Source of the DNA: an uncultured Fidelibacterota bacterium
GTDB lineage: Bacteria > Fidelibacterota > Marinisomatia > Marinisomatales > UBA1611
NCBI GenBank assembly: GCA_913040915.1
Contig: CAJWHW010000009.1
Span: forward strand, 1 to 64,000
DNA length: 64,000 nucleotides
Direction: 5' to 3'
This document shows, one piece after another, positions 8,238 to 41,990 of this stretch (its first letter is position 1; every line of letters begins with the position of its first letter). Both the position numbers and the translations under genes were made by a program. Under the pieces are notes generated by a model. The model saw only the letters and a program-made list of their open reading frames with translations, did no database searches and was not told the DNA's origin.

Positions 8238-11200
8238 ATGGTTTATCATTCCATATCCATTATTCTATTTTCAGGGATATTATTTGCTTCCATAAATAAA
8301 ACAATTTTGCAAAATAATAAGGATCAACTTGTTATATCCATTAATATTAATGCGGAAACAGAGGCTGATCTTAGACCTGCATCCATTATGATTGGTTTAC
8401 CTACAAGCAATCTACCAAAAACACAAATTCAATTTTTAAATAAAGATGAAATACCCTTTAAGTCTCACCAAAAAAAGACAAGTGATTTTGAATGGATTAA
8501 TAAACAAAAACTTTGTAACCTAGAAGTAGCGACTTTGCATATATCTCCTTTAGCAAATTCAAATGAATATTTTAAAACGATCAAAGTATCACTGGATTTT
8601 GAACGAGAGAGATATGAGCACAGAAAACCTAATAAAAATGAATTTCTACTATTAAAAAATAGAATTGTTAATTGGGATATCGCTCAAAATTGGATTCTAA
8701 AAAAAGAGAGAATAACATCAAAAATTACAAATTATACCCCTGGACGATGGTTTCAGTTTTTTTTGACTGAAGATGGAATGGTATCAATTCCTTATTCATC
8801 ACTATCTAATGTAATTGATAATATATCAAATATAGACCCCAGATCATTTTCAATCTACATGAGTAATGAATTTGGTCGTGCAAGATCTCAATCTACCAAT
8901 CAGGAAATAGCACCTAACTTAGTTGAAATTGGTATTTGGGTGCAGGGAGAAGAAGACGGAGTTTTTGATATAAATGACAGGATTATTTTTTATGGTCGTG
9001 GTCCATCCGGATACGATGTTATTGGTAATGATTTAGACTGGCATCAAAATATTTATTTTTCAAAGAATTCCTGCTGGCTCTTTATTCCGAATGATTCTTC
9101 TTTAAAGGGTAAACGAATACATCCTGCTTCTCAACCTGAATCAGTTGCGATCACATTGGATTATGGAATCTCAGCAATACATGAAGAATTGGATCTTGTT
9201 AATCTAAAGGGTGAGGGCACTGTATGGCTTAGTAATTCTATTCCTGCTGGTACATCCCAAAACATTGTTGTTGATCTATTTGCGCCAAAACCAAGTGTGG
9301 ATATCAGCATAAAGGCACGCGTTTATGGTTTTTCTAATCCAGAAAATGCATTAGCAAATCATTCGATAAGTCTACGTTTTGGTGGATTAGATGGAGAAAC
9401 TATCGGAAACAATGCGACCTGGACATCTTCATCTTTTTTGAAGAGAGATATTGTTGATACATCACCAAATATTACTCTAAATAATGGTATAAATGTTTTC
9501 TATTTGAGAAATATGTCTGATGATTCTAAATCAATGCCACATTTTGATTTTTTTGAAATTCAGTACGGCCGAGAATTATCCTTTGAAGATTCTTATAATT
9601 TCAAATCTCCTATTTCAGGTCAGAATATTCGTTTTTCATTTACAGGCGTCAAACAAGCTACTCAATTTATGTGGGATATCACGGATGTATCAAACCCAGA
9701 ATCAATGGTATTTTCAGAGTCAAATTATATTAATGTAACAGTTCCAACTGCCTTAACAAAGTATTTCATAGTTTTTGATACTAATACATTACCGGAAATC
9801 ACAGAATTTACTATTAAAGAAGATCAAGAATTTTTTACTTTACGACAGAGCGGAATACAAGCGGATTATATTGTCACAGGTCCTGAAATATTTCGTGATG
9901 AAGCTACAGAATTAGTATATTTAAGGTCTCCTGCAATTTTTGCAAGTTTAGAAACAATTTATGATGAATTTTCTGCAGGGAATAAAGATCCAATGGGGAT
10001 TCGAAGTTTTATTCAATGGGCACTCGAAAAATGGACGGAACCAGTACCAACTTTTTTAATGATTCTGGGTGATAGTGGCTATGATTATAGAAATATCACT
10101 GGTCAATCTTCCATAGTATTTCCAACTATCCAAACTACATCCTATGCTACTGATGATAAACTAGCTACTTTAAATGGCAATGTACCAGAAGTTGCAATCG
10201 GTAGATTCCCTGCCAGAGATGAATCAGAAGTGACCAATTTTATTGAAAAAGTTTTAGTGATTGAGTCTAATCCTGATCTTGGCCCATGGAGGCAGCGGGT
10301 TACAATTATGGCTGATGATGGCGCCAGACCAGAGCCAGGCAGTGGATCAATAGAAGTTGGTAAATCACACACCCTTTATTCTGAGATTCTGGCAGACTTA
10401 GTACCGTCTTCTCTGAACGTGCAAAAAATTTATATGCAGGAATACCCTGAAGTCAGTGATGCTTCAGCCTTTGGAGTATTAAAACCAGATGCAACCGAAG
10501 ATGTTTTCAAAGCTTTGAACAAAGGAACAGCTATTATCTCGTACATTGGCCACGGTTCACCATATCAATTAGCCCAAGAAAAATTATTATCTCTCAACAG
10601 GGGCGATATCAATCAAATAAATACAGGCCAAAAAATGCCTATATGGATAGTTGGCACCTGTTCATTTGGGCATTTTGATGATCCATTAACAGAGTCGTTC
10701 GCGGAGGAACTGATTCGAGAACCCTTAAATGCTGCTTCCATGATCATTTCAACTTCCCGTAAAATATCTGTCTCAGGTAATTCTCGCTATACCAGAGAAT
10801 TATTTGAAAGAATTTTTGCTAATGACCAAGTAACAGATTCACCTATTGGTGTAATTCTACAAATTGTAAAAGATGGAGCTCCAGAAGGACAATATTTTCA
10901 TTTATTTGGAGACCCAGCGATGTCCCTACCAATGCCTAAAGATATTTTAAACATCACAGGTGTAACACCTGATACATTAAAAACTCTTGGTATCGCAACT
11001 TTTAACGGGCAACAATCTAGTTTCGATGGAGATGGAGCAGGATATGTAGTATTAATTGATGCAGACCGAGAGGTAACTCGAGAATATCAAATTAATTCTC
11101 AGACAGAATCTCTGACCTACAGTTTACCTGGACCAACTCTATTTAGGGGGCAATTCTCATTTGCAGGCGAAATATTTGCAGGAGATATTCGAATTCCTCA

Positions 11201-11951
11201 GGATATTTCATACTCTAATGATCCGGCCCGCCTAGTAATATATATTAATGATGAAAATAAAGAAGCTTCTGGAGTATTAAATGGCTTGCAATTGACTGGT
11301 GGTGATGGGACCAATGATACATTTGGTCCTAAGATTACATTTGAAACAGAATCTGGGCAGAGCTTGGAAAATGGAGATCATTTTCCTGAAGATCAAAATC
11401 TGATAATTAGAATGTCAGACCCATTAGGTATTAACCTAACTGATGAAACAGGACATGAAATTTTGGTGACAGATTTATTATCAAACCAATCAGAGACTAT
11501 TACTCAGGATTTCTATTATGATACAAACAGTATAATGACAGGCACAATTTCATTTTCTCCATCAAGTGGTAAAGAGATTAAATTATTGGTTAAGGTGTGG
11601 GATAATGCCAATAACCCTAATGAAAAGAAAATCCATTTATCTCGTACTTCAGCAAAAGACCTTAAAATATACAATGCTTATAATTACCCCAATCCATTTT
11701 CTACATTTACTCAATTTGCCTTTGAACTAACACAAACTGCAGATATAAAACTGGATATTTTTAGTTTAGGTGGAAGAAGAGTTAAATCTTTTGATGAATT
11801 CTCAAAAACTCCTGGATACCATACCATAGATTGGGATGGGTTAGATTCCTTTGGAAGTCAAATTGCAAATGGAGTTTACTTATATAGGCTTAAGGCTTTT
11901 GGTGAAAATAGTTCAGAAACTTATATTGGCCGGTGCGCAAAATACCAATAA
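8238..11951 (+). CDS. porU: PorU-like type IX secretion sortase (peptidase C25) with C-terminal T9SS/FlgD-Ig-like tail
   Basis: Signal peptide; IIFYGRGP; C25 core (IYDEFSAG..DPMGIRSF, ATDD, IGRFP, YIGHG, GTCSFGHFD, LFGDPAM); tail YNYPNPF...IDWDGLD...NGVYLYRL. Start placed at ATG 8238; the track uses 8202. Confidence 0.85.
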   Translation: MVYHSISIILFSGILFASINKTILQNNKDQLVISININAETEADLRPASIMIGLPTSNLPKTQIQFLNKDEIPFKSHQKKTSDFEWINKQKLCNLEVATLHISPLANSNEYFKTIKVSLDFERERYEHRKPNKNEFLLLKNRIVNWDIAQNWILKKERITSKITNYTPGRWFQFFLTEDGMVSIPYSSLSNVIDNISNIDPRSFSIYMSNEFGRARSQSTNQEIAPNLVEIGIWVQGEEDGVFDINDRIIFYGRGPSGYDVIGNDLDWHQNIYFSKNSCWLFIPNDSSLKGKRIHPASQPESVAITLDYGISAIHEELDLVNLKGEGTVWLSNSIPAGTSQNIVVDLFAPKPSVDISIKARVYGFSNPENALANHSISLRFGGLDGETIGNNATWTSSSFLKRDIVDTSPNITLNNGINVFYLRNMSDDSKSMPHFDFFEIQYGRELSFEDSYNFKSPISGQNIRFSFTGVKQATQFMWDITDVSNPESMVFSESNYINVTVPTALTKYFIVFDTNTLPEITEFTIKEDQEFFTLRQSGIQADYIVTGPEIFRDEATELVYLRSPAIFASLETIYDEFSAGNKDPMGIRSFIQWALEKWTEPVPTFLMILGDSGYDYRNITGQSSIVFPTIQTTSYATDDKLATLNGNVPEVAIGRFPARDESEVTNFIEKVLVIESNPDLGPWRQRVTIMADDGARPEPGSGSIEVGKSHTLYSEILADLVPSSLNVQKIYMQEYPEVSDASAFGVLKPDATEDVFKALNKGTAIISYIGHGSPYQLAQEKLLSLNRGDINQINTGQKMPIWIVGTCSFGHFDDPLTESFAEELIREPLNAASMIISTSRKISVSGNSRYTRELFERIFANDQVTDSPIGVILQIVKDGAPEGQYFHLFGDPAMSLPMPKDILNITGVTPDTLKTLGIATFNGQQSSFDGDGAGYVVLIDADREVTREYQINSQTESLTYSLPGPTLFRGQFSFAGEIFAGDIRIPQDISYSNDPARLVIYINDENKEASGVLNGLQLTGGDGTNDTFGPKITFETESGQSLENGDHFPEDQNLIIRMSDPLGINLTDETGHEILVTDLLSNQSETITQDFYYDTNSIMTGTISFSPSSGKEIKLLVKVWDNANNPNEKKIHLSRTSAKDLKIYNAYNYPNPFSTFTQFAFELTQTADIKLDIFSLGGRRVKSFDEFSKTPGYHTIDWDGLDSFGSQIANGVYLYRLKAFGENSSETYIGRCAKYQ

Positions 11952-31250: not shown

Positions 31251-31709
31251 TTATGTATTGAGCTCATTTTTATTTCCTTCCTTAACTGCAATCAATGCCA
31301 TGGATAAGAATAGAGCTTTATATACGAATTCATGAGCACTTATAACAAAAGCAATCCAATAGTGATTATTCAATAATAAAAAAATAAAAAGCGGGTGTAT
31401 AATAAATAAGGCAATATTATAAAGTGTTAGATATTTAATAGCTTGTCTTTTTTTATATACCCAAAGAAAGGAAATAGTCACCCAAAAATATCCATTAAAA
31501 GGTAAATTAAGAAATATATTAATAAATCGATCTGATTTTGACTCTATCCAATAATCATCCAGATCTGCATAAATATATAAATCATTATATTGAACGGTAT
31601 AATTCTGCAGGTAGGGAACAATTACATTTGAAACTATACTAATTTGAACTGGCCGGATTAAATAAAAATAAAAAATACGGAAAAGGTTAAAAATAAATTT
31701 AACCAGAAA
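31251..31709 (-). CDS. Exosortase-associated multi-pass membrane protein (start uncertain)
   Basis: The frame of the 76-aa track ORF stays open upstream to 31709 (about 152 codons: FLVKFIFNLFRIFYFYLIRPVQ...LPFNGYFWVTISFLWVYKKR...). It has several hydrophobic helices and no ATG/GTG/TTG near its 5' end. Confidence 0.6.
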   Translation of the reverse strand, partial: FLVKFIFNLFRIFYFYLIRPVQISIVSNVIVPYLQNYTVQYNDLYIYADLDDYWIESKSDRFINIFLNLPFNGYFWVTISFLWVYKKRQAIKYLTLYNIALFIIHPLFIFLLLNNHYWIAFVISAHEFVYKALFLSMALIAVKEGNKNELNT

Positions 31710-32256
31710 TTAAAATATCTCTTTCGTCGCTGATAAGGGTCCATAAATACCAAAATAATAAAACAATCGGATAAAAGAAAATATAAGAACTATAATCATG
31801 AGCAATTTGAAAGTATTGTGGCATATTCGCATTTATCACTGCGAATAATGCTATTCTAATGATATTTGCAAAATATAGAATGCTAAGACCAATCAATAAG
31901 AAGATTATCCGTTTTTTCCATAGTCCCGGGTAAGCAATAATAAATCCTCCATATAAACCTAAAAGATTCAAGCCATTACATCCATTTTGAATCTCTACGC
32001 CACTATGTCCTATACATTTTATAATCCTGCCGGAAACGTTAATCTCCCAACCCATAAAGCCTAATAAACTGCCGGCTAGATTTACCCCTGATATACTTAA
32101 AAATGTGTCTAAACTGCCATCAGGAAGTAAAAAGAGATTATACAAAAATTGCCAAGCTGCATAAACTCCACCGGCTTTTATTAAAAATTGAGTTAATGGT
32201 GATATAGATTTACTTTTTTCGATTATACAGTTTTTTCCAAGCCATAGCCCCGCCAA
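31699..32256 (-). CDS. Exosortase/archaeosortase family transpeptidase (XrtF/XrtX-like)
   Basis: Multi-TM protein with the catalytic-triad motifs VEIQNGCNGL (Cys), ANIIRI (Arg) and AHDYS (His). Start uncertain (TTG 32256). Confidence 0.85.
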   Translation of the reverse strand: MAGLWLGKNCIIEKSKSISPLTQFLIKAGGVYAAWQFLYNLFLLPDGSLDTFLSISGVNLAGSLLGFMGWEINVSGRIIKCIGHSGVEIQNGCNGLNLLGLYGGFIIAYPGLWKKRIIFLLIGLSILYFANIIRIALFAVINANMPQYFQIAHDYSSYIFFYPIVLLFWYLWTLISDERDILISG

Positions 32257-32386
32257 ATAACCCTAATAGCCCTAGACCACCAACGGGTGCCTGATCAGGA
32301 TTACTAGGAAAGTCAACTCCTTGTGCAGTTAGCCATGATAGATTTAAGATTACTAAAATATAGATCGCATATAATTTCAATTTCAT
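32210..32386 (-). CDS. 58-aa micro-protein with signal peptide and exosortase-type (PID-CTERM-like) C-terminal sorting signal
   Basis: Not in the ORF track. Manual translation: MKLKLYAIYILVILNLSWLTAQGVDFPSNPDQAPVGGLGLLGLFGGAMAWKKLYNRKK*. ATG lies 10 nt after the upstream gene's stop, and the gene is immediately 5' of the exosortase. Confidence 0.85.
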   Translation of the reverse strand: MKLKLYAIYILVILNLSWLTAQGVDFPSNPDQAPVGGLGLLGLFGGAMAWKKLYNRKK

Positions 32387-32396
32387 TACTTCTGCC

Positions 32397-34487
32397 CTAT
32401 TTAACGTATGTGACTTTTTCAGTAAGAGTCTTTCCAGATGTACTAAGTTGCATAAAATACACTCCAGACGGTAAGAATCCAGGTACCCAAGAATAACTGT
32501 GACTCCCTGGGTTAAGAGTCTTCTGAAAAATTGTCTCTACCAATGCACCTTTTATATCATATACATTTAAGGTAATAATACTGATATCTGGGCTATAAAA
32601 GCTAATATTTGTACTGGGATTAAATGGATTCGGATAAACAGGATATAAAGTAAAATCTTTTGGAAGAATTATATGAGGATCACTTTCTAATGATAAATAT
32701 GTTATGGATATCGTAAACCTTGGATCACCCAAAACTGGGTATGTACCTATAGGCCCATCATAAGTAGCAGCAAAGCTTCCCTTAGGCTCGGTAGTAAAAG
32801 TATATTCACTTTCATAGTTTAGGTAAATTTCCATCTCTGTCATATTATCGATCAAGATCATATTTATATGATCTGGGAGCTCGTCTTTATTCCAGGAAAG
32901 TGTTACTTCTCGTGATTCTGTAATATAATTTGATTCTTCAAGACTAAGACACATAACATCGAAAGGAACATAAACAGTACCTTCAAAATCATAAGGATAA
33001 CTATTAATCTTATAGGCATCTCCATCAACGATACTCATCATTGCAATACGGGACGAAGCCTGAAAAGGTAATAATAACTGAGACTCACCATCATCTACAC
33101 CAATCGTTCCGCCTTCAAAAAAAGAAAAATGGTGAGAAGACGTATGGCCATCGAAGGAAGCATTGAAAACCATCCTACCTACACTTTCTTCATCCACAGT
33201 CCTGTAAAAGGTCCCCGATGAGTTGCACCTGTCTGCCCTTTCAATAGTAATACTACCCGTTCCGCCGCTGGCTTGAACCCAGAATCCCTGAAAAGGTTCT
33301 ATATGTCCACCTATCAAATCTCCAGAGCTACCACTACTATTATAAGTTTTCCAGTCTGAATTAGCATCGTCCCAAATACTTATGGTGGTAGAAACAGATG
33401 TTTTTGAAATAAGATCCCAGTCAATTGTTGCTGCATAAGGATTTCCTGCCAAAGCGAATTCACCATCAGCTATACTCCCTAAAGAAGTACTGGAACTGTT
33501 CTCTGCGCCTGAGACACTCAAAGACACAGGAAGATCCGAGTCACCATCCCAGTCTGTATCCTCAAACACATAGATTAAAAAACCTGTACCTGCCGTCAGG
33601 CTCGCACCACCACCAGAACTCGATATATCAGTTAATGCTGTCCAACTTTGACTAGAAACATTCAAGGTCCAAACATTAGCTGCACCATCCGTTACATCTG
33701 CACCTGTCATTCCCTGAGTCCATAACTCCGCTAATAAATCACTAAAAACCTGTCCGGCAACAGGGCTAGACATCATACGAAAACCAGAATTACCAGAAAT
33801 AGATACGCTACGATATCCATCCCATGCACCAGGGTCAAAACCATTATTCGAAAAATAGGTTGTAGATTGTATAATTGAATTACCAGTATTTTGATCTACA
33901 CCTGCCAAAAATGTCTCATCATCACTCCAACAATTCCAAGCACTACTAGAAGAAGATGTCACTGCAGATGTTTGCGTAGACACACGCTCGGCACGACCAT
34001 CTTCAAACTCATGCCAATTCCCACTACCATCCGTTCCTGGGTTACCAAATATATCAATATAATCCCAAGTTGAAGAATTATTTGCAGCAAAACTTTGACC
34101 AGCTGCTTCCTTAACTATAGCATGGTTGTCATCTCCATTAGAATCGGCTGGGCCACCACTACCTTGATTAACAAGGGTAGTATTTGAGCCTACTTCAAAA
34201 GCCTCGCCAAACCCGCTAGAACTTTTAGCAAATATTAAAAATGCACCTGCTGCTAATGTATAACTACTCAAGTCAATAGCAGTCGAATTTGTAGCATTCG
34301 CATTACCATTTGTCCATCTAATTATATAATAATCTGTGAGATTAACAGATGAGCTTCCTGAATTATGAATTTCAATGTATCTACAACCATCATCATCATC
34401 AGGATCTGCTATCTCTGTTATAATTATATCCGCCTTTGAAAACATTGGTAAAAAAACAAAGATTAATACAAAATAAATTTGACCCAT
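32397..34487 (-). CDS. Secreted lamin-tail-domain protein with T9SS C-terminal sorting domain
   Basis: Signal peptide; LTD-like IIITEIADP..YIEIHNSGSSSVNLTDY; central GNPYAATIDW...PFQGFWVQA region; tail YPNPFNPST...YDIKG...LPSGVYF...KVTYVK. Confidence 0.85.
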   Translation of the reverse strand: MGQIYFVLIFVFLPMFSKADIIITEIADPDDDDGCRYIEIHNSGSSSVNLTDYYIIRWTNGNANATNSTAIDLSSYTLAAGAFLIFAKSSSGFGEAFEVGSNTTLVNQGSGGPADSNGDDNHAIVKEAAGQSFAANNSSTWDYIDIFGNPGTDGSGNWHEFEDGRAERVSTQTSAVTSSSSSAWNCWSDDETFLAGVDQNTGNSIIQSTTYFSNNGFDPGAWDGYRSVSISGNSGFRMMSSPVAGQVFSDLLAELWTQGMTGADVTDGAANVWTLNVSSQSWTALTDISSSGGGASLTAGTGFLIYVFEDTDWDGDSDLPVSLSVSGAENSSSTSLGSIADGEFALAGNPYAATIDWDLISKTSVSTTISIWDDANSDWKTYNSSGSSGDLIGGHIEPFQGFWVQASGGTGSITIERADRCNSSGTFYRTVDEESVGRMVFNASFDGHTSSHHFSFFEGGTIGVDDGESQLLLPFQASSRIAMMSIVDGDAYKINSYPYDFEGTVYVPFDVMCLSLEESNYITESREVTLSWNKDELPDHINMILIDNMTEMEIYLNYESEYTFTTEPKGSFAATYDGPIGTYPVLGDPRFTISITYLSLESDPHIILPKDFTLYPVYPNPFNPSTNISFYSPDISIITLNVYDIKGALVETIFQKTLNPGSHSYSWVPGFLPSGVYFMQLSTSGKTLTEKVTYVK

Positions 34488-41969: not shown

Positions 41970-41990
41970 TAATTATTTAGGAGATAAACT

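Follow-up and report, generated by a model that had tools for sequence, protein, structure and literature searches.

The stretch of DNA analysed here, called the window throughout, comprises positions 1 to 64,000 of contig CAJWHW010000009.1 from an uncultured Fidelibacterota bacterium, and its minus strand holds an open reading frame (ORF) of 58 codons, running from ATG to TAA at 32210..32386, whose translation is MKLKLYAIYILVILNLSWLTAQGVDFPSNPDQAPVGGLGLLGLFGGAMAWKKLYNRKK. By profile comparison the encoded micro-protein belongs, as a divergent member, to the PID-CTERM micro-proteins (NF046080, PF28310), and with its neighbours it represents a phylum-specific variant in which the motif is without Asp, both partners score below the curated cut-offs, the genes overlap and each genome holds two co-diversified pairs. 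We think it probable that this micro-protein is a cargo-less substrate dedicated to an exosortase whose gene comes next and overlaps its own. Both genes lie in a predicted four-gene minus-strand operon coding for a type IX secretion system (T9SS) stalk protein, the micro-protein, the exosortase and a membrane partner. The ORF had been proposed in an earlier note made from the letters alone; it is present on the minus strand, with an identical translation. The gene and its segments are as follows.

32210..32386, minus strand: micro-protein gene, 58 amino acids (aa) (ORF, alignment, profile search, dN/dS, hhalign)
32324..32386, minus strand: residues 1-21, predicted Sec-type signal peptide, comprising MKLK, the h-region and L-T-A (hydropathy and alignment)
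32288..32323, minus strand: residues 22-33, conserved core QGVDFPSNPDQA (alignment and dN/dS)
32276..32287, minus strand: residues 34-37, putative sorting motif P-V-G-G (hhalign and alignment)
32213..32275, minus strand: residues 38-58, Gly/Leu/Ala-rich span (38-50) and basic tail KKLYNRKK (51-58) (alignment, hydropathy)

The signal peptide has an n-region, MKLK, of net charge +2 and a 15-residue h-region (residues 5-19) with a Kyte-Doolittle mean of 2.05, and cleavage is predicted to follow L-T-A, immediately before Q22. The core is Pro-rich and acidic (Kyte-Doolittle mean -1.09, net charge -2) and across the family follows the pattern Q-x2-4-[FL]-P-x-x-P-x-Q-[AG], the span of residues 38-50 has a mean of 1.62, and the tail KKLYNRKK carries a net charge of +5. 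The plan described in the earlier note, with a signal peptide ending in A-Q, a short Pro/Asp-rich core, a tail composed of motif, transmembrane (TM) span and basic residues, and no folded domain, proves to be family-wide. From this layout the micro-protein is little more than a sorting tag.

Seven columns are invariant in an alignment of 20 micro-proteins (A21, Q22, P27, P30, Q32, P34 and G37), and the position -3 to the predicted cleavage site is I, L or V in every aligned sequence. The conservation of frame and pattern, on which the earlier note had staked its proposal, is borne out by these columns and by the 23 of 26 full-length places among relatives in which a homologous micro-ORF immediately precedes the exosortase gene. 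In a wider sample of 44 loci, drawn from species-representative Fidelibacterota genomes with at least 100 nucleotides (nt) of sequence upstream of the exosortase, adjacency was defined, as for the 26 places, as a match to the micro-protein hidden Markov model (HMM) that ends no more than 140 nt upstream of the enzyme match or overlaps it; 38 of these loci have the micro-gene directly upstream, in two cases as a weak, degenerate copy. The ratio of nonsynonymous to synonymous substitution rates (dN/dS, by NG86), also proposed as a check, came to 0.25 and 0.12 over the whole micro-ORF in two clades; of all regions, the core plus motif had the smallest values, 0.145 and 0.060. These ratios are rough because dS is saturated and pairs with undefined dS were dropped, which left 28 of 45 and 27 of 36 usable pairs for the whole ORF and 25 and 23 for the core plus motif. 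On this evidence the micro-gene is real, conserved and under purifying selection that is strongest in the core.

A search of 1.84 billion representative proteins with the micro-protein profile returned 260 matches at E<=1e-3, 40 of them at E<=1e-10, and 148 of the 150 best matches are no longer than 154 aa. The ESM Atlas contains the micro-protein letter for letter, so that some pipeline has already called the micro-ORF a gene. A spurious ORF was considered and is ruled out by the conservation and by dN/dS.

The family assignment rests on a comparison of profiles in which an alignment of 20 window-type members was matched by hhalign to one of 20 canonical PIDGG micro-proteins, all 20 of which match NF046080; the two agree with a probability of 99.6% and an E-value of 8.8e-25 over 48 columns. 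The motif-TM-basic tail, read in the earlier note as a sorting signal, is on this result homologous to the PID-CTERM sorting domain. A one-column gap falls at the Asp of P-I-D-G-G, and the window's P-V-G-G, which the note had rightly distinguished from PID(GG), is the counterpart of that motif minus Asp; the residue is missing in 19 of 20 relatives, the exception being L029 with G-P-I-D-G. At E<=10 NF046080 itself picks up 8 of the 20 window-type micro-proteins, the best of them at 5.9e-6, and it gives 27.8 bits for one Fidelibacterota copy and 22.5 bits for twelve others. None of the 20 micro-proteins was matched in a Pfam search, the copy used apparently being one without PF28310, and a neighbouring cluster of the ESM Atlas (score 0.89, a lead only) has Pfam PF28310 PID_CTERM on 97% of its members.

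The micro-protein profile search also retrieves canonical PIDGG proteins. Gracilimonas, Balneola, another Balneolaceae and a Chitinophagales metagenome-assembled genome (MAG) each hold 2-12 NF046080 matches above the cut-off, together with an XrtX above its cut-off at 182-206 bits; the 206 bits belong to Gracilimonas tropica DSM 19535, a cultivable carrier with 6 micro-genes. At the 12 loci examined around NF046080 matches (10 canonical, 2 Fidelibacterota), the matching genes code for micro-proteins of 61-86 aa with a shared plan: signal peptide, A-Q, P-x-L-P-x-x-P-x-Q-A, P-I-D-G-G, a Gly/Ala span and KKLR. Together, the profile-profile match and this shared plan lead us to regard the window's micro-protein as a divergent offshoot of a catalogued family.

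A longer subset of canonical PID-CTERM proteins, of 130-155 aa, was also seen (L143 1180-1587, plus strand; L151 1492-1923, minus strand; P0032, P0034, P0039, P0040, P0055 and others), in which a conserved N-terminal CxxC...CxxC (zinc-ribbon-like) cytoplasmic region is followed by a hydrophobic segment and then by the usual core and tail.

The gene that follows the micro-gene codes for the candidate processing enzyme.

31699..32256, minus strand: XrtX-like exosortase, 185 aa from TTG 32256 (NF046081, TIGR04178, Pfam Exosortase_EpsH)

The product scores above the superfamily cut-offs (TIGR04178 63.9 bits, cut-off 23; PF09721 50.8 bits, cut-off 25.7), and Cys93, Arg134 and His153, in the numbering of the 185-aa ORF, are invariant in 19 of 19 aligned exosortases. 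XrtX is its best-scoring family, with XrtF at 60 bits (cut-off 90) and XrtY at 53 bits. A maximum-likelihood tree places the Fidelibacterota exosortases in a clade of their own (support 100/100), apart from canonical XrtX (100/100), and in a phylum sample of 401 genomes 50 match XrtX, none of them at the cut-off. The start of the gene is uncertain, being either TTG 32256 or ATA 32226, which aligns with Met in one homologue, and depending on this choice the exosortase gene overlaps the 3' end of the micro-gene by 17-47 nt.

Enzyme and micro-protein occur together. The XrtX-like exosortase is present in 24 of 61 relatives and the micro-protein in 27, and all 24 that have the enzyme also have the micro-protein; in the three that are positive for the micro-protein without an exosortase, the match lies at a contig edge or the genome is incomplete (69% and 87% complete). 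The source genome (1.86 Mb, 71 contigs, 85% complete) holds two exosortases and, by a six-frame HMM scan, exactly two micro-protein tails, the next best match having an E-value of 0.02; the scan for paralogous tails proposed in the earlier note thus yielded a single further one. Two enzymes with only two tails between them argue for one dedicated substrate per enzyme and no larger cargo. The second cassette lies on contig C12 (L002, ~18.1-21.5 kb) and consists of a stalk-type T9SS protein, a 60-aa micro-protein whose motif reads G-P-I-P-G, an XrtX-like enzyme that shares 45% identity with the window exosortase, and an intact membrane partner of 172 aa. An enzyme subclade of ten rows in the tree (97/97) pairs in nine cases with Q-G-P-I-x-G micro-proteins, the tenth reading QGPIGG, and the remaining Fidelibacterota rows pair with Q-A-P-I-G-G micro-proteins; the source genome holds one enzyme/micro-protein pair of each type. 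By these counts the micro-protein is tightly linked to the exosortase and has co-diversified with it.

An ORF that overlaps the start of its downstream gene by 17-47 nt could in principle be non-coding or a regulatory upstream ORF whose sole effect is to tune expression of the exosortase. We find this barely credible, given that what is conserved is the amino-acid sequence, with a dN/dS far less than 1, that the profile search retrieved a family of such size, and that homologues in canonical genomes are unlinked to any exosortase gene. The micro-gene stands next to the exosortase in 0 of 11 loci with canonical XrtX; for loci of Acidobacteriota type the count is 0 of 22.

Some Fidelibacterota loci are arranged in other ways. 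L010/L076 have ORFs of 49 and 84 aa between micro-gene and exosortase (~760-1280 in L010, oriented), a pair that looks toxin-antitoxin-like by eye only and in one genome. The basal exosortase genes L087, L093 and L110 (~2230-2450) have no micro-gene in front of them; there, the preceding gene codes for a ~64-aa protein that has a membrane span at its N-terminus and CPxCG...CxxC at its C-terminus, and the same CPxCG...CxxC small protein precedes N-terminal exosortase fragments in L030 (109 aa) and L031 (64 aa).

Behind the exosortase, in the position of an exosortase partner, lies the fourth gene.

31251..31753, minus strand: small polytopic membrane protein, split (DNA alignment with L004 and L006)

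The split leaves a 31-aa ORF (31658-31753) and a 151-aa remainder (31251-31706) that is open only from CTG. Relative to L004 and L006, which are of the same genus or the same family, one A is missing in an A-run near 31700, and there is in addition an in-frame gap of 6 nt; the split may have arisen in assembly or may reflect a genuine frameshift. The match to TIGR04127 is weak (E 0.14, and 0.0019 on the last 76 aa). NF046082, the XrtX-associated membrane protein, found no match in the source genome or in either downstream ORF, and in three canonical Balneolaceae genomes, among five entries searched, gave weak, off-target matches only.

Since exosortases can have small membrane partners (TIGR04127, NF046082), a different reading suggests itself, in which the micro-protein is never cleaved and serves the exosortase or the T9SS protein as a single-pass membrane subunit, chaperone or regulator. 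Overlapping genes would suit co-assembly, and the most conserved part of the micro-protein is the core, which would face the periplasm. The tail is nevertheless tripartite like known sortase-type signals and homologous to a curated sorting domain, and canonical genomes carry 2-12 near-identical copies scattered away from a single enzyme, which a consumed substrate fits better than a subunit does. We therefore judge an uncleaved subunit to be distinctly unlikely and retain the dedicated substrate as the preferred reading.

The gene in front of the micro-gene codes for a large T9SS cargo protein.

32397..34487, minus strand: T9SS cargo protein, 696 aa, with its stop 10 nt before the micro-gene ATG (Pfam LTD, Por_Secre_tail; TIGR04183)

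This protein has a lamin-tail-domain (LTD) head (residues 17-120), an all-beta stalk (~residues 228-600) and a type A T9SS C-terminal sorting domain (residues 617-692). Among 8000 candidates scored, 687 homologues were found at E<=1e-5; the C-terminal ~68% is common to them and the heads are variable, including LTD, laminin-G-like, lactonase-type propeller, Calx-beta and endonuclease I, with the invariant columns of the stalk alignment beginning at G232. An AlphaFold2 model has a mean pLDDT of 68 and a pTM of 0.54, with a poorly modelled head; in it the stalk (residues 228-600) is all-beta and mostly at pLDDT 75-95, with low stretches at ~321-330 and ~418-433. A Foldseek search with the model of the 696-aa protein gave generic beta-sandwich arrays only (S-layer, fibronectin-type; TM ~0.1) and no specific relative.

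The stalk module is found in exactly two places in the source genome, both before a micro-gene and exosortase, as against 48 places that resemble a T9SS C-terminal domain (CTD). Of the 12 loci around PID-CTERM matches described above, 10 have a large T9SS-tailed protein directly before the micro-gene, and in 7 of the 10 canonical loci the window's stalk module itself was found by tblastn. In five other genomes, paired by hand, 28 of 37 micro-genes directly follow a module match: 12 of 13 in a complete Fidelibacterota chromosome, 4 of 4 in a complete Balneolaceae chromosome, 5 of 6 in Gracilimonas, 6 of 12 in Balneola and 1 of 2 in the Chitinophagales MAG. Some module proteins are without a micro-gene; in the Balneolaceae chromosome, 4 of 6 have one. 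By this genomic pairing the micro-gene is linked to the T9SS stalk module. Prediction of a complex between stalk residues 225-696 and micro-protein residues 20-58 gave scores of 0.02, 0.45 and 0.02 in runs without controls, and we count it neither for nor against an interaction.

In the complete Fidelibacterota chromosome (L069/L070/L092, ~1.534-1.579 Mb), ten stalk-protein and micro-gene cassettes form a tandem array, 2.8-7.5 kb apart, with stalk frames of 724-2300 aa and, after several cassettes, N-terminal exosortase fragments of 84-94 codons. The array has the look of a surface-protein family with variable heads that grows in units of whole cassettes. On contig C10 of the source genome, the mature part of a 1100-aa T9SS cargo whose start lies near 41987 (reverse-strand coordinate) begins A-Q-D-P-P, like the clade-2 micro-proteins, which may be chance. 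The window also encodes PorU, the T9SS sortase, at 8742-11909 on the plus strand, ~20 kb from the operon (NF033707 563.5 bits, cut-off 420).

The course of events we propose draws on the layout of the micro-protein and on proposals made for PEP-CTERM/exosortase systems in the available part of PMC7468200. The pre-protein would be exported by Sec, and signal peptidase I would cut after L-T-A to expose Gln22, while the C-terminal span and KKLYNRKK would hold the remainder in the inner membrane with its N-terminus out. The XrtX-like exosortase, through Cys93, Arg134 and His153, would then cleave the chain at P-V-G-G or immediately behind it, by way of an acyl-enzyme as in sortases, and hand a peptide of ~12-16 residues (QGVDFPSNPDQAP...) to an acceptor, and this peptide would most likely act together with the co-encoded T9SS surface protein. 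Since there is one micro-gene per stalk gene, with near-identical copies within and across phyla, the peptide is probably consumed stoichiometrically, and we think that this use would be in the biogenesis or anchoring of the stalk protein.

A more specific version of this reading casts the peptide as an anchor or adaptor for T9SS cargo. The exosortase might, though we consider it rather unlikely, couple the peptide of ~14 residues to an amine-bearing envelope glycolipid or lipid, or to another amine acceptor, at the inner membrane. The exported peptide-glycolipid could then conceivably, at no better odds, serve as a surface receptor or attachment point for the stalk protein, by binding or by ligation of the PorU type, which would make the peptide a missing connector between two envelope sortase pathways, an idea to which we give a low probability. 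The confinement of the stalk module to the two cassettes of the source genome, out of 48 CTD-like places, and the 28 of 37 micro-genes that directly follow it elsewhere both point this way, as do the provision of each cargo gene with its own micro-gene, which suggests stoichiometric use, and the presence of PorU in the same window. Two published observations add to these, each taken from the part of the source that was available: in Flavobacterium johnsoniae, deletions of xrtF and its partner stand in the same phenotype row as deletions of porU, porZ and a sugar aminotransferase (PMC10936215), and VimA-type enzymes of the T9SS linking-sugar pathway are related to exosortase systems (Veith et al., PMC7468200). 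On the strength of these two sources a link between exosortases and T9SS attachment is worth testing, though as an association only, and our literature search on exosortases with T9SS returned no paper that proposes a link through a micro-protein. The case for an adaptor is one of genomic association throughout; the F. johnsoniae data concern XrtF and not the clade of the window, 9 of the 37 micro-genes have no paired module match, the peptide would need to reach the cell surface, and an N-terminal Gln that had cyclised could not serve as an amine for PorU. If it were true, the adaptor would explain why each cargo gene has its own micro-gene, why the tag is never joined to a cargo domain, and why in Flavobacterium the mutants of exosortase resemble those of PorU/PorZ.

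Whether Gln22 cyclises bears on this point. The earlier note had argued from Bacteroidota, and that premise was mistaken, the organism belonging to Marinimicrobia/Fidelibacterota; the Q-rule for signal peptide cleavage is restricted to Bacteroidetes according to the available part of PMC5837995. In the source genome, the N-termini of 40 signal-bearing T9SS cargo proteins were inspected by eye and 16 have Q after the h-region, so that Gln at +1 is common there. A search of the 85%-complete genome for the type-I glutaminyl cyclase PF05096 found none, and an M28-type cyclase was not searched for. Pyroglutamate at Gln22 is plausible; like cleavage at both ends, the chemistry of transfer, the acceptor and any lipid anchoring, it is an inference.

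A short, conserved and Pro-rich core with a possible pyroglutamate cap might also suggest a freely diffusing signal or a peptide akin to a ribosomally synthesised and post-translationally modified peptide (RiPP), trimmed at both ends and released. The RiPP-like product envisaged in the earlier note finds no support, because the flanking genes, which code for FtsA, FtsZ, L28, dihydrouridine synthase (Dus) and aldehyde dehydrogenase, include no modification enzyme, and the sole processing enzyme is the exosortase. Nor are there export or sensor genes nearby, and a core that is nearly identical across four phyla and in up to 13 copies per genome is unlike species-specific signals; the strict pairing with a structural surface protein also speaks against release. 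A released peptide is accordingly very unlikely in our estimation, and we return to a substrate consumed by its own exosortase.

Several findings weigh against that preferred reading. The window micro-protein has no match to NF046080 at E<=1 or at E<=10 (cut-off 26 bits), and the exosortase scores 146.9 bits with its best NCBIfam model, XrtX NF046081, below the cut-off of 170. An adjacent micro-gene is missing in 6 of the 44 Fidelibacterota loci; in one of these six, other ORFs have been inserted and a micro-gene lies ~2.5 kb further upstream in that genome. The core is conserved as much as the tail, and may be part of a recognition or binding surface and not a product. The membrane partner gene is frameshifted in this assembly. 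The micro-gene is known from sequence, the sequencing runs found being of marine DNA with no RNA run among them, and our literature search returned no paper on PID-CTERM, none relevant on XrtX or exosortase X, and no biochemistry for either.

Terminator-like matches inside the operon amount to two weak hairpins in the T9SS gene (33764-33749 and 33601-33588), and none falls at a gene junction, which supports a single operon; promoter-like sites in the scan are not above shuffled sequence (25 versus 18.7 ± 5.3). Elsewhere in the source genome, on contig C4 (56136-56627, plus strand), there is a weak relative of TIGR03019, the PEP-CTERM-associated FemAB/VimA-like acyltransferase (55 bits, cut-off 260), which we record as a lead only.

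Set beside known systems, the micro-protein is closest to PID-CTERM (NF046080), with which it shares a signal peptide ending in A-Q, the core P-x-[LF]-P-x-x-P-x-Q-A, a motif, a Gly/Ala span and a KKL-basic tail within ~55-90 aa, and canonical members likewise stand behind T9SS proteins with the same stalk module. It differs in the Asp-less P-V-G-G (P-I-G-G or G-P-I-x-G in its own family), in belonging to the phylum Fidelibacterota, and in a gene that overlaps that of the enzyme, whereas canonical micro-genes lie away from XrtX. The exosortase resembles XrtX (NF046081) in size (~170-185 aa) and in its conserved Cys, Arg and His, although its clade is separate from the XrtX of Balneolota, Rhodothermota and Bacteroidota. 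XrtF and its partner (TIGR04128, TIGR04127; Fjoh_1448/1449) share the gene order, in which a minimal exosortase comes first and a small polytopic membrane protein second, and that system is tied genetically to surface colonisation and to mutants of the T9SS attachment complex (PMC10936215); the window enzyme differs in falling below the XrtF cut-off, and for XrtF itself, according to that paper, a substrate is not known. PEP-CTERM with XrtA and PGF-CTERM with ArtA have the same kind of tripartite C-terminal signal, and their enzyme, polytopic and Cys-based, comes from the same superfamily (PMC1569441 and PMC7468200), but these systems have real cargo domains and many substrates per enzyme, in place of ~12 residues and one dedicated substrate per enzyme. 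PorU, described in the available part of PMC7468200 as a transpeptidase that joins a new protein C-terminus to the amine of an envelope glycolipid, is likened to the exosortase in this respect; it acts at the cell surface on a cargo CTD, whereas the window exosortase would act at the inner membrane on a micro-protein, and a link between the two is hypothetical.

The family is already in curated databases, and the function of its micro-proteins is without a published study. The curated cut-offs for PID-CTERM and XrtX miss a whole marine phylum (SAR406/Marinimicrobia). We know of no exosortase with a chemically defined product or acceptor, and a substrate of 58 aa with a core of ~12 residues, served by an enzyme of 185 aa from an overlapping gene, would be the smallest conceivable system of this kind and an attractive one for reconstitution and mass spectrometry. 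To our knowledge it is also unclear how most T9SS surface proteins are retained on cells outside Porphyromonas. The pairing of the micro-gene with one T9SS stalk family across four phyla would tie exosortases to type IX surface display in a concrete way that can be tested.

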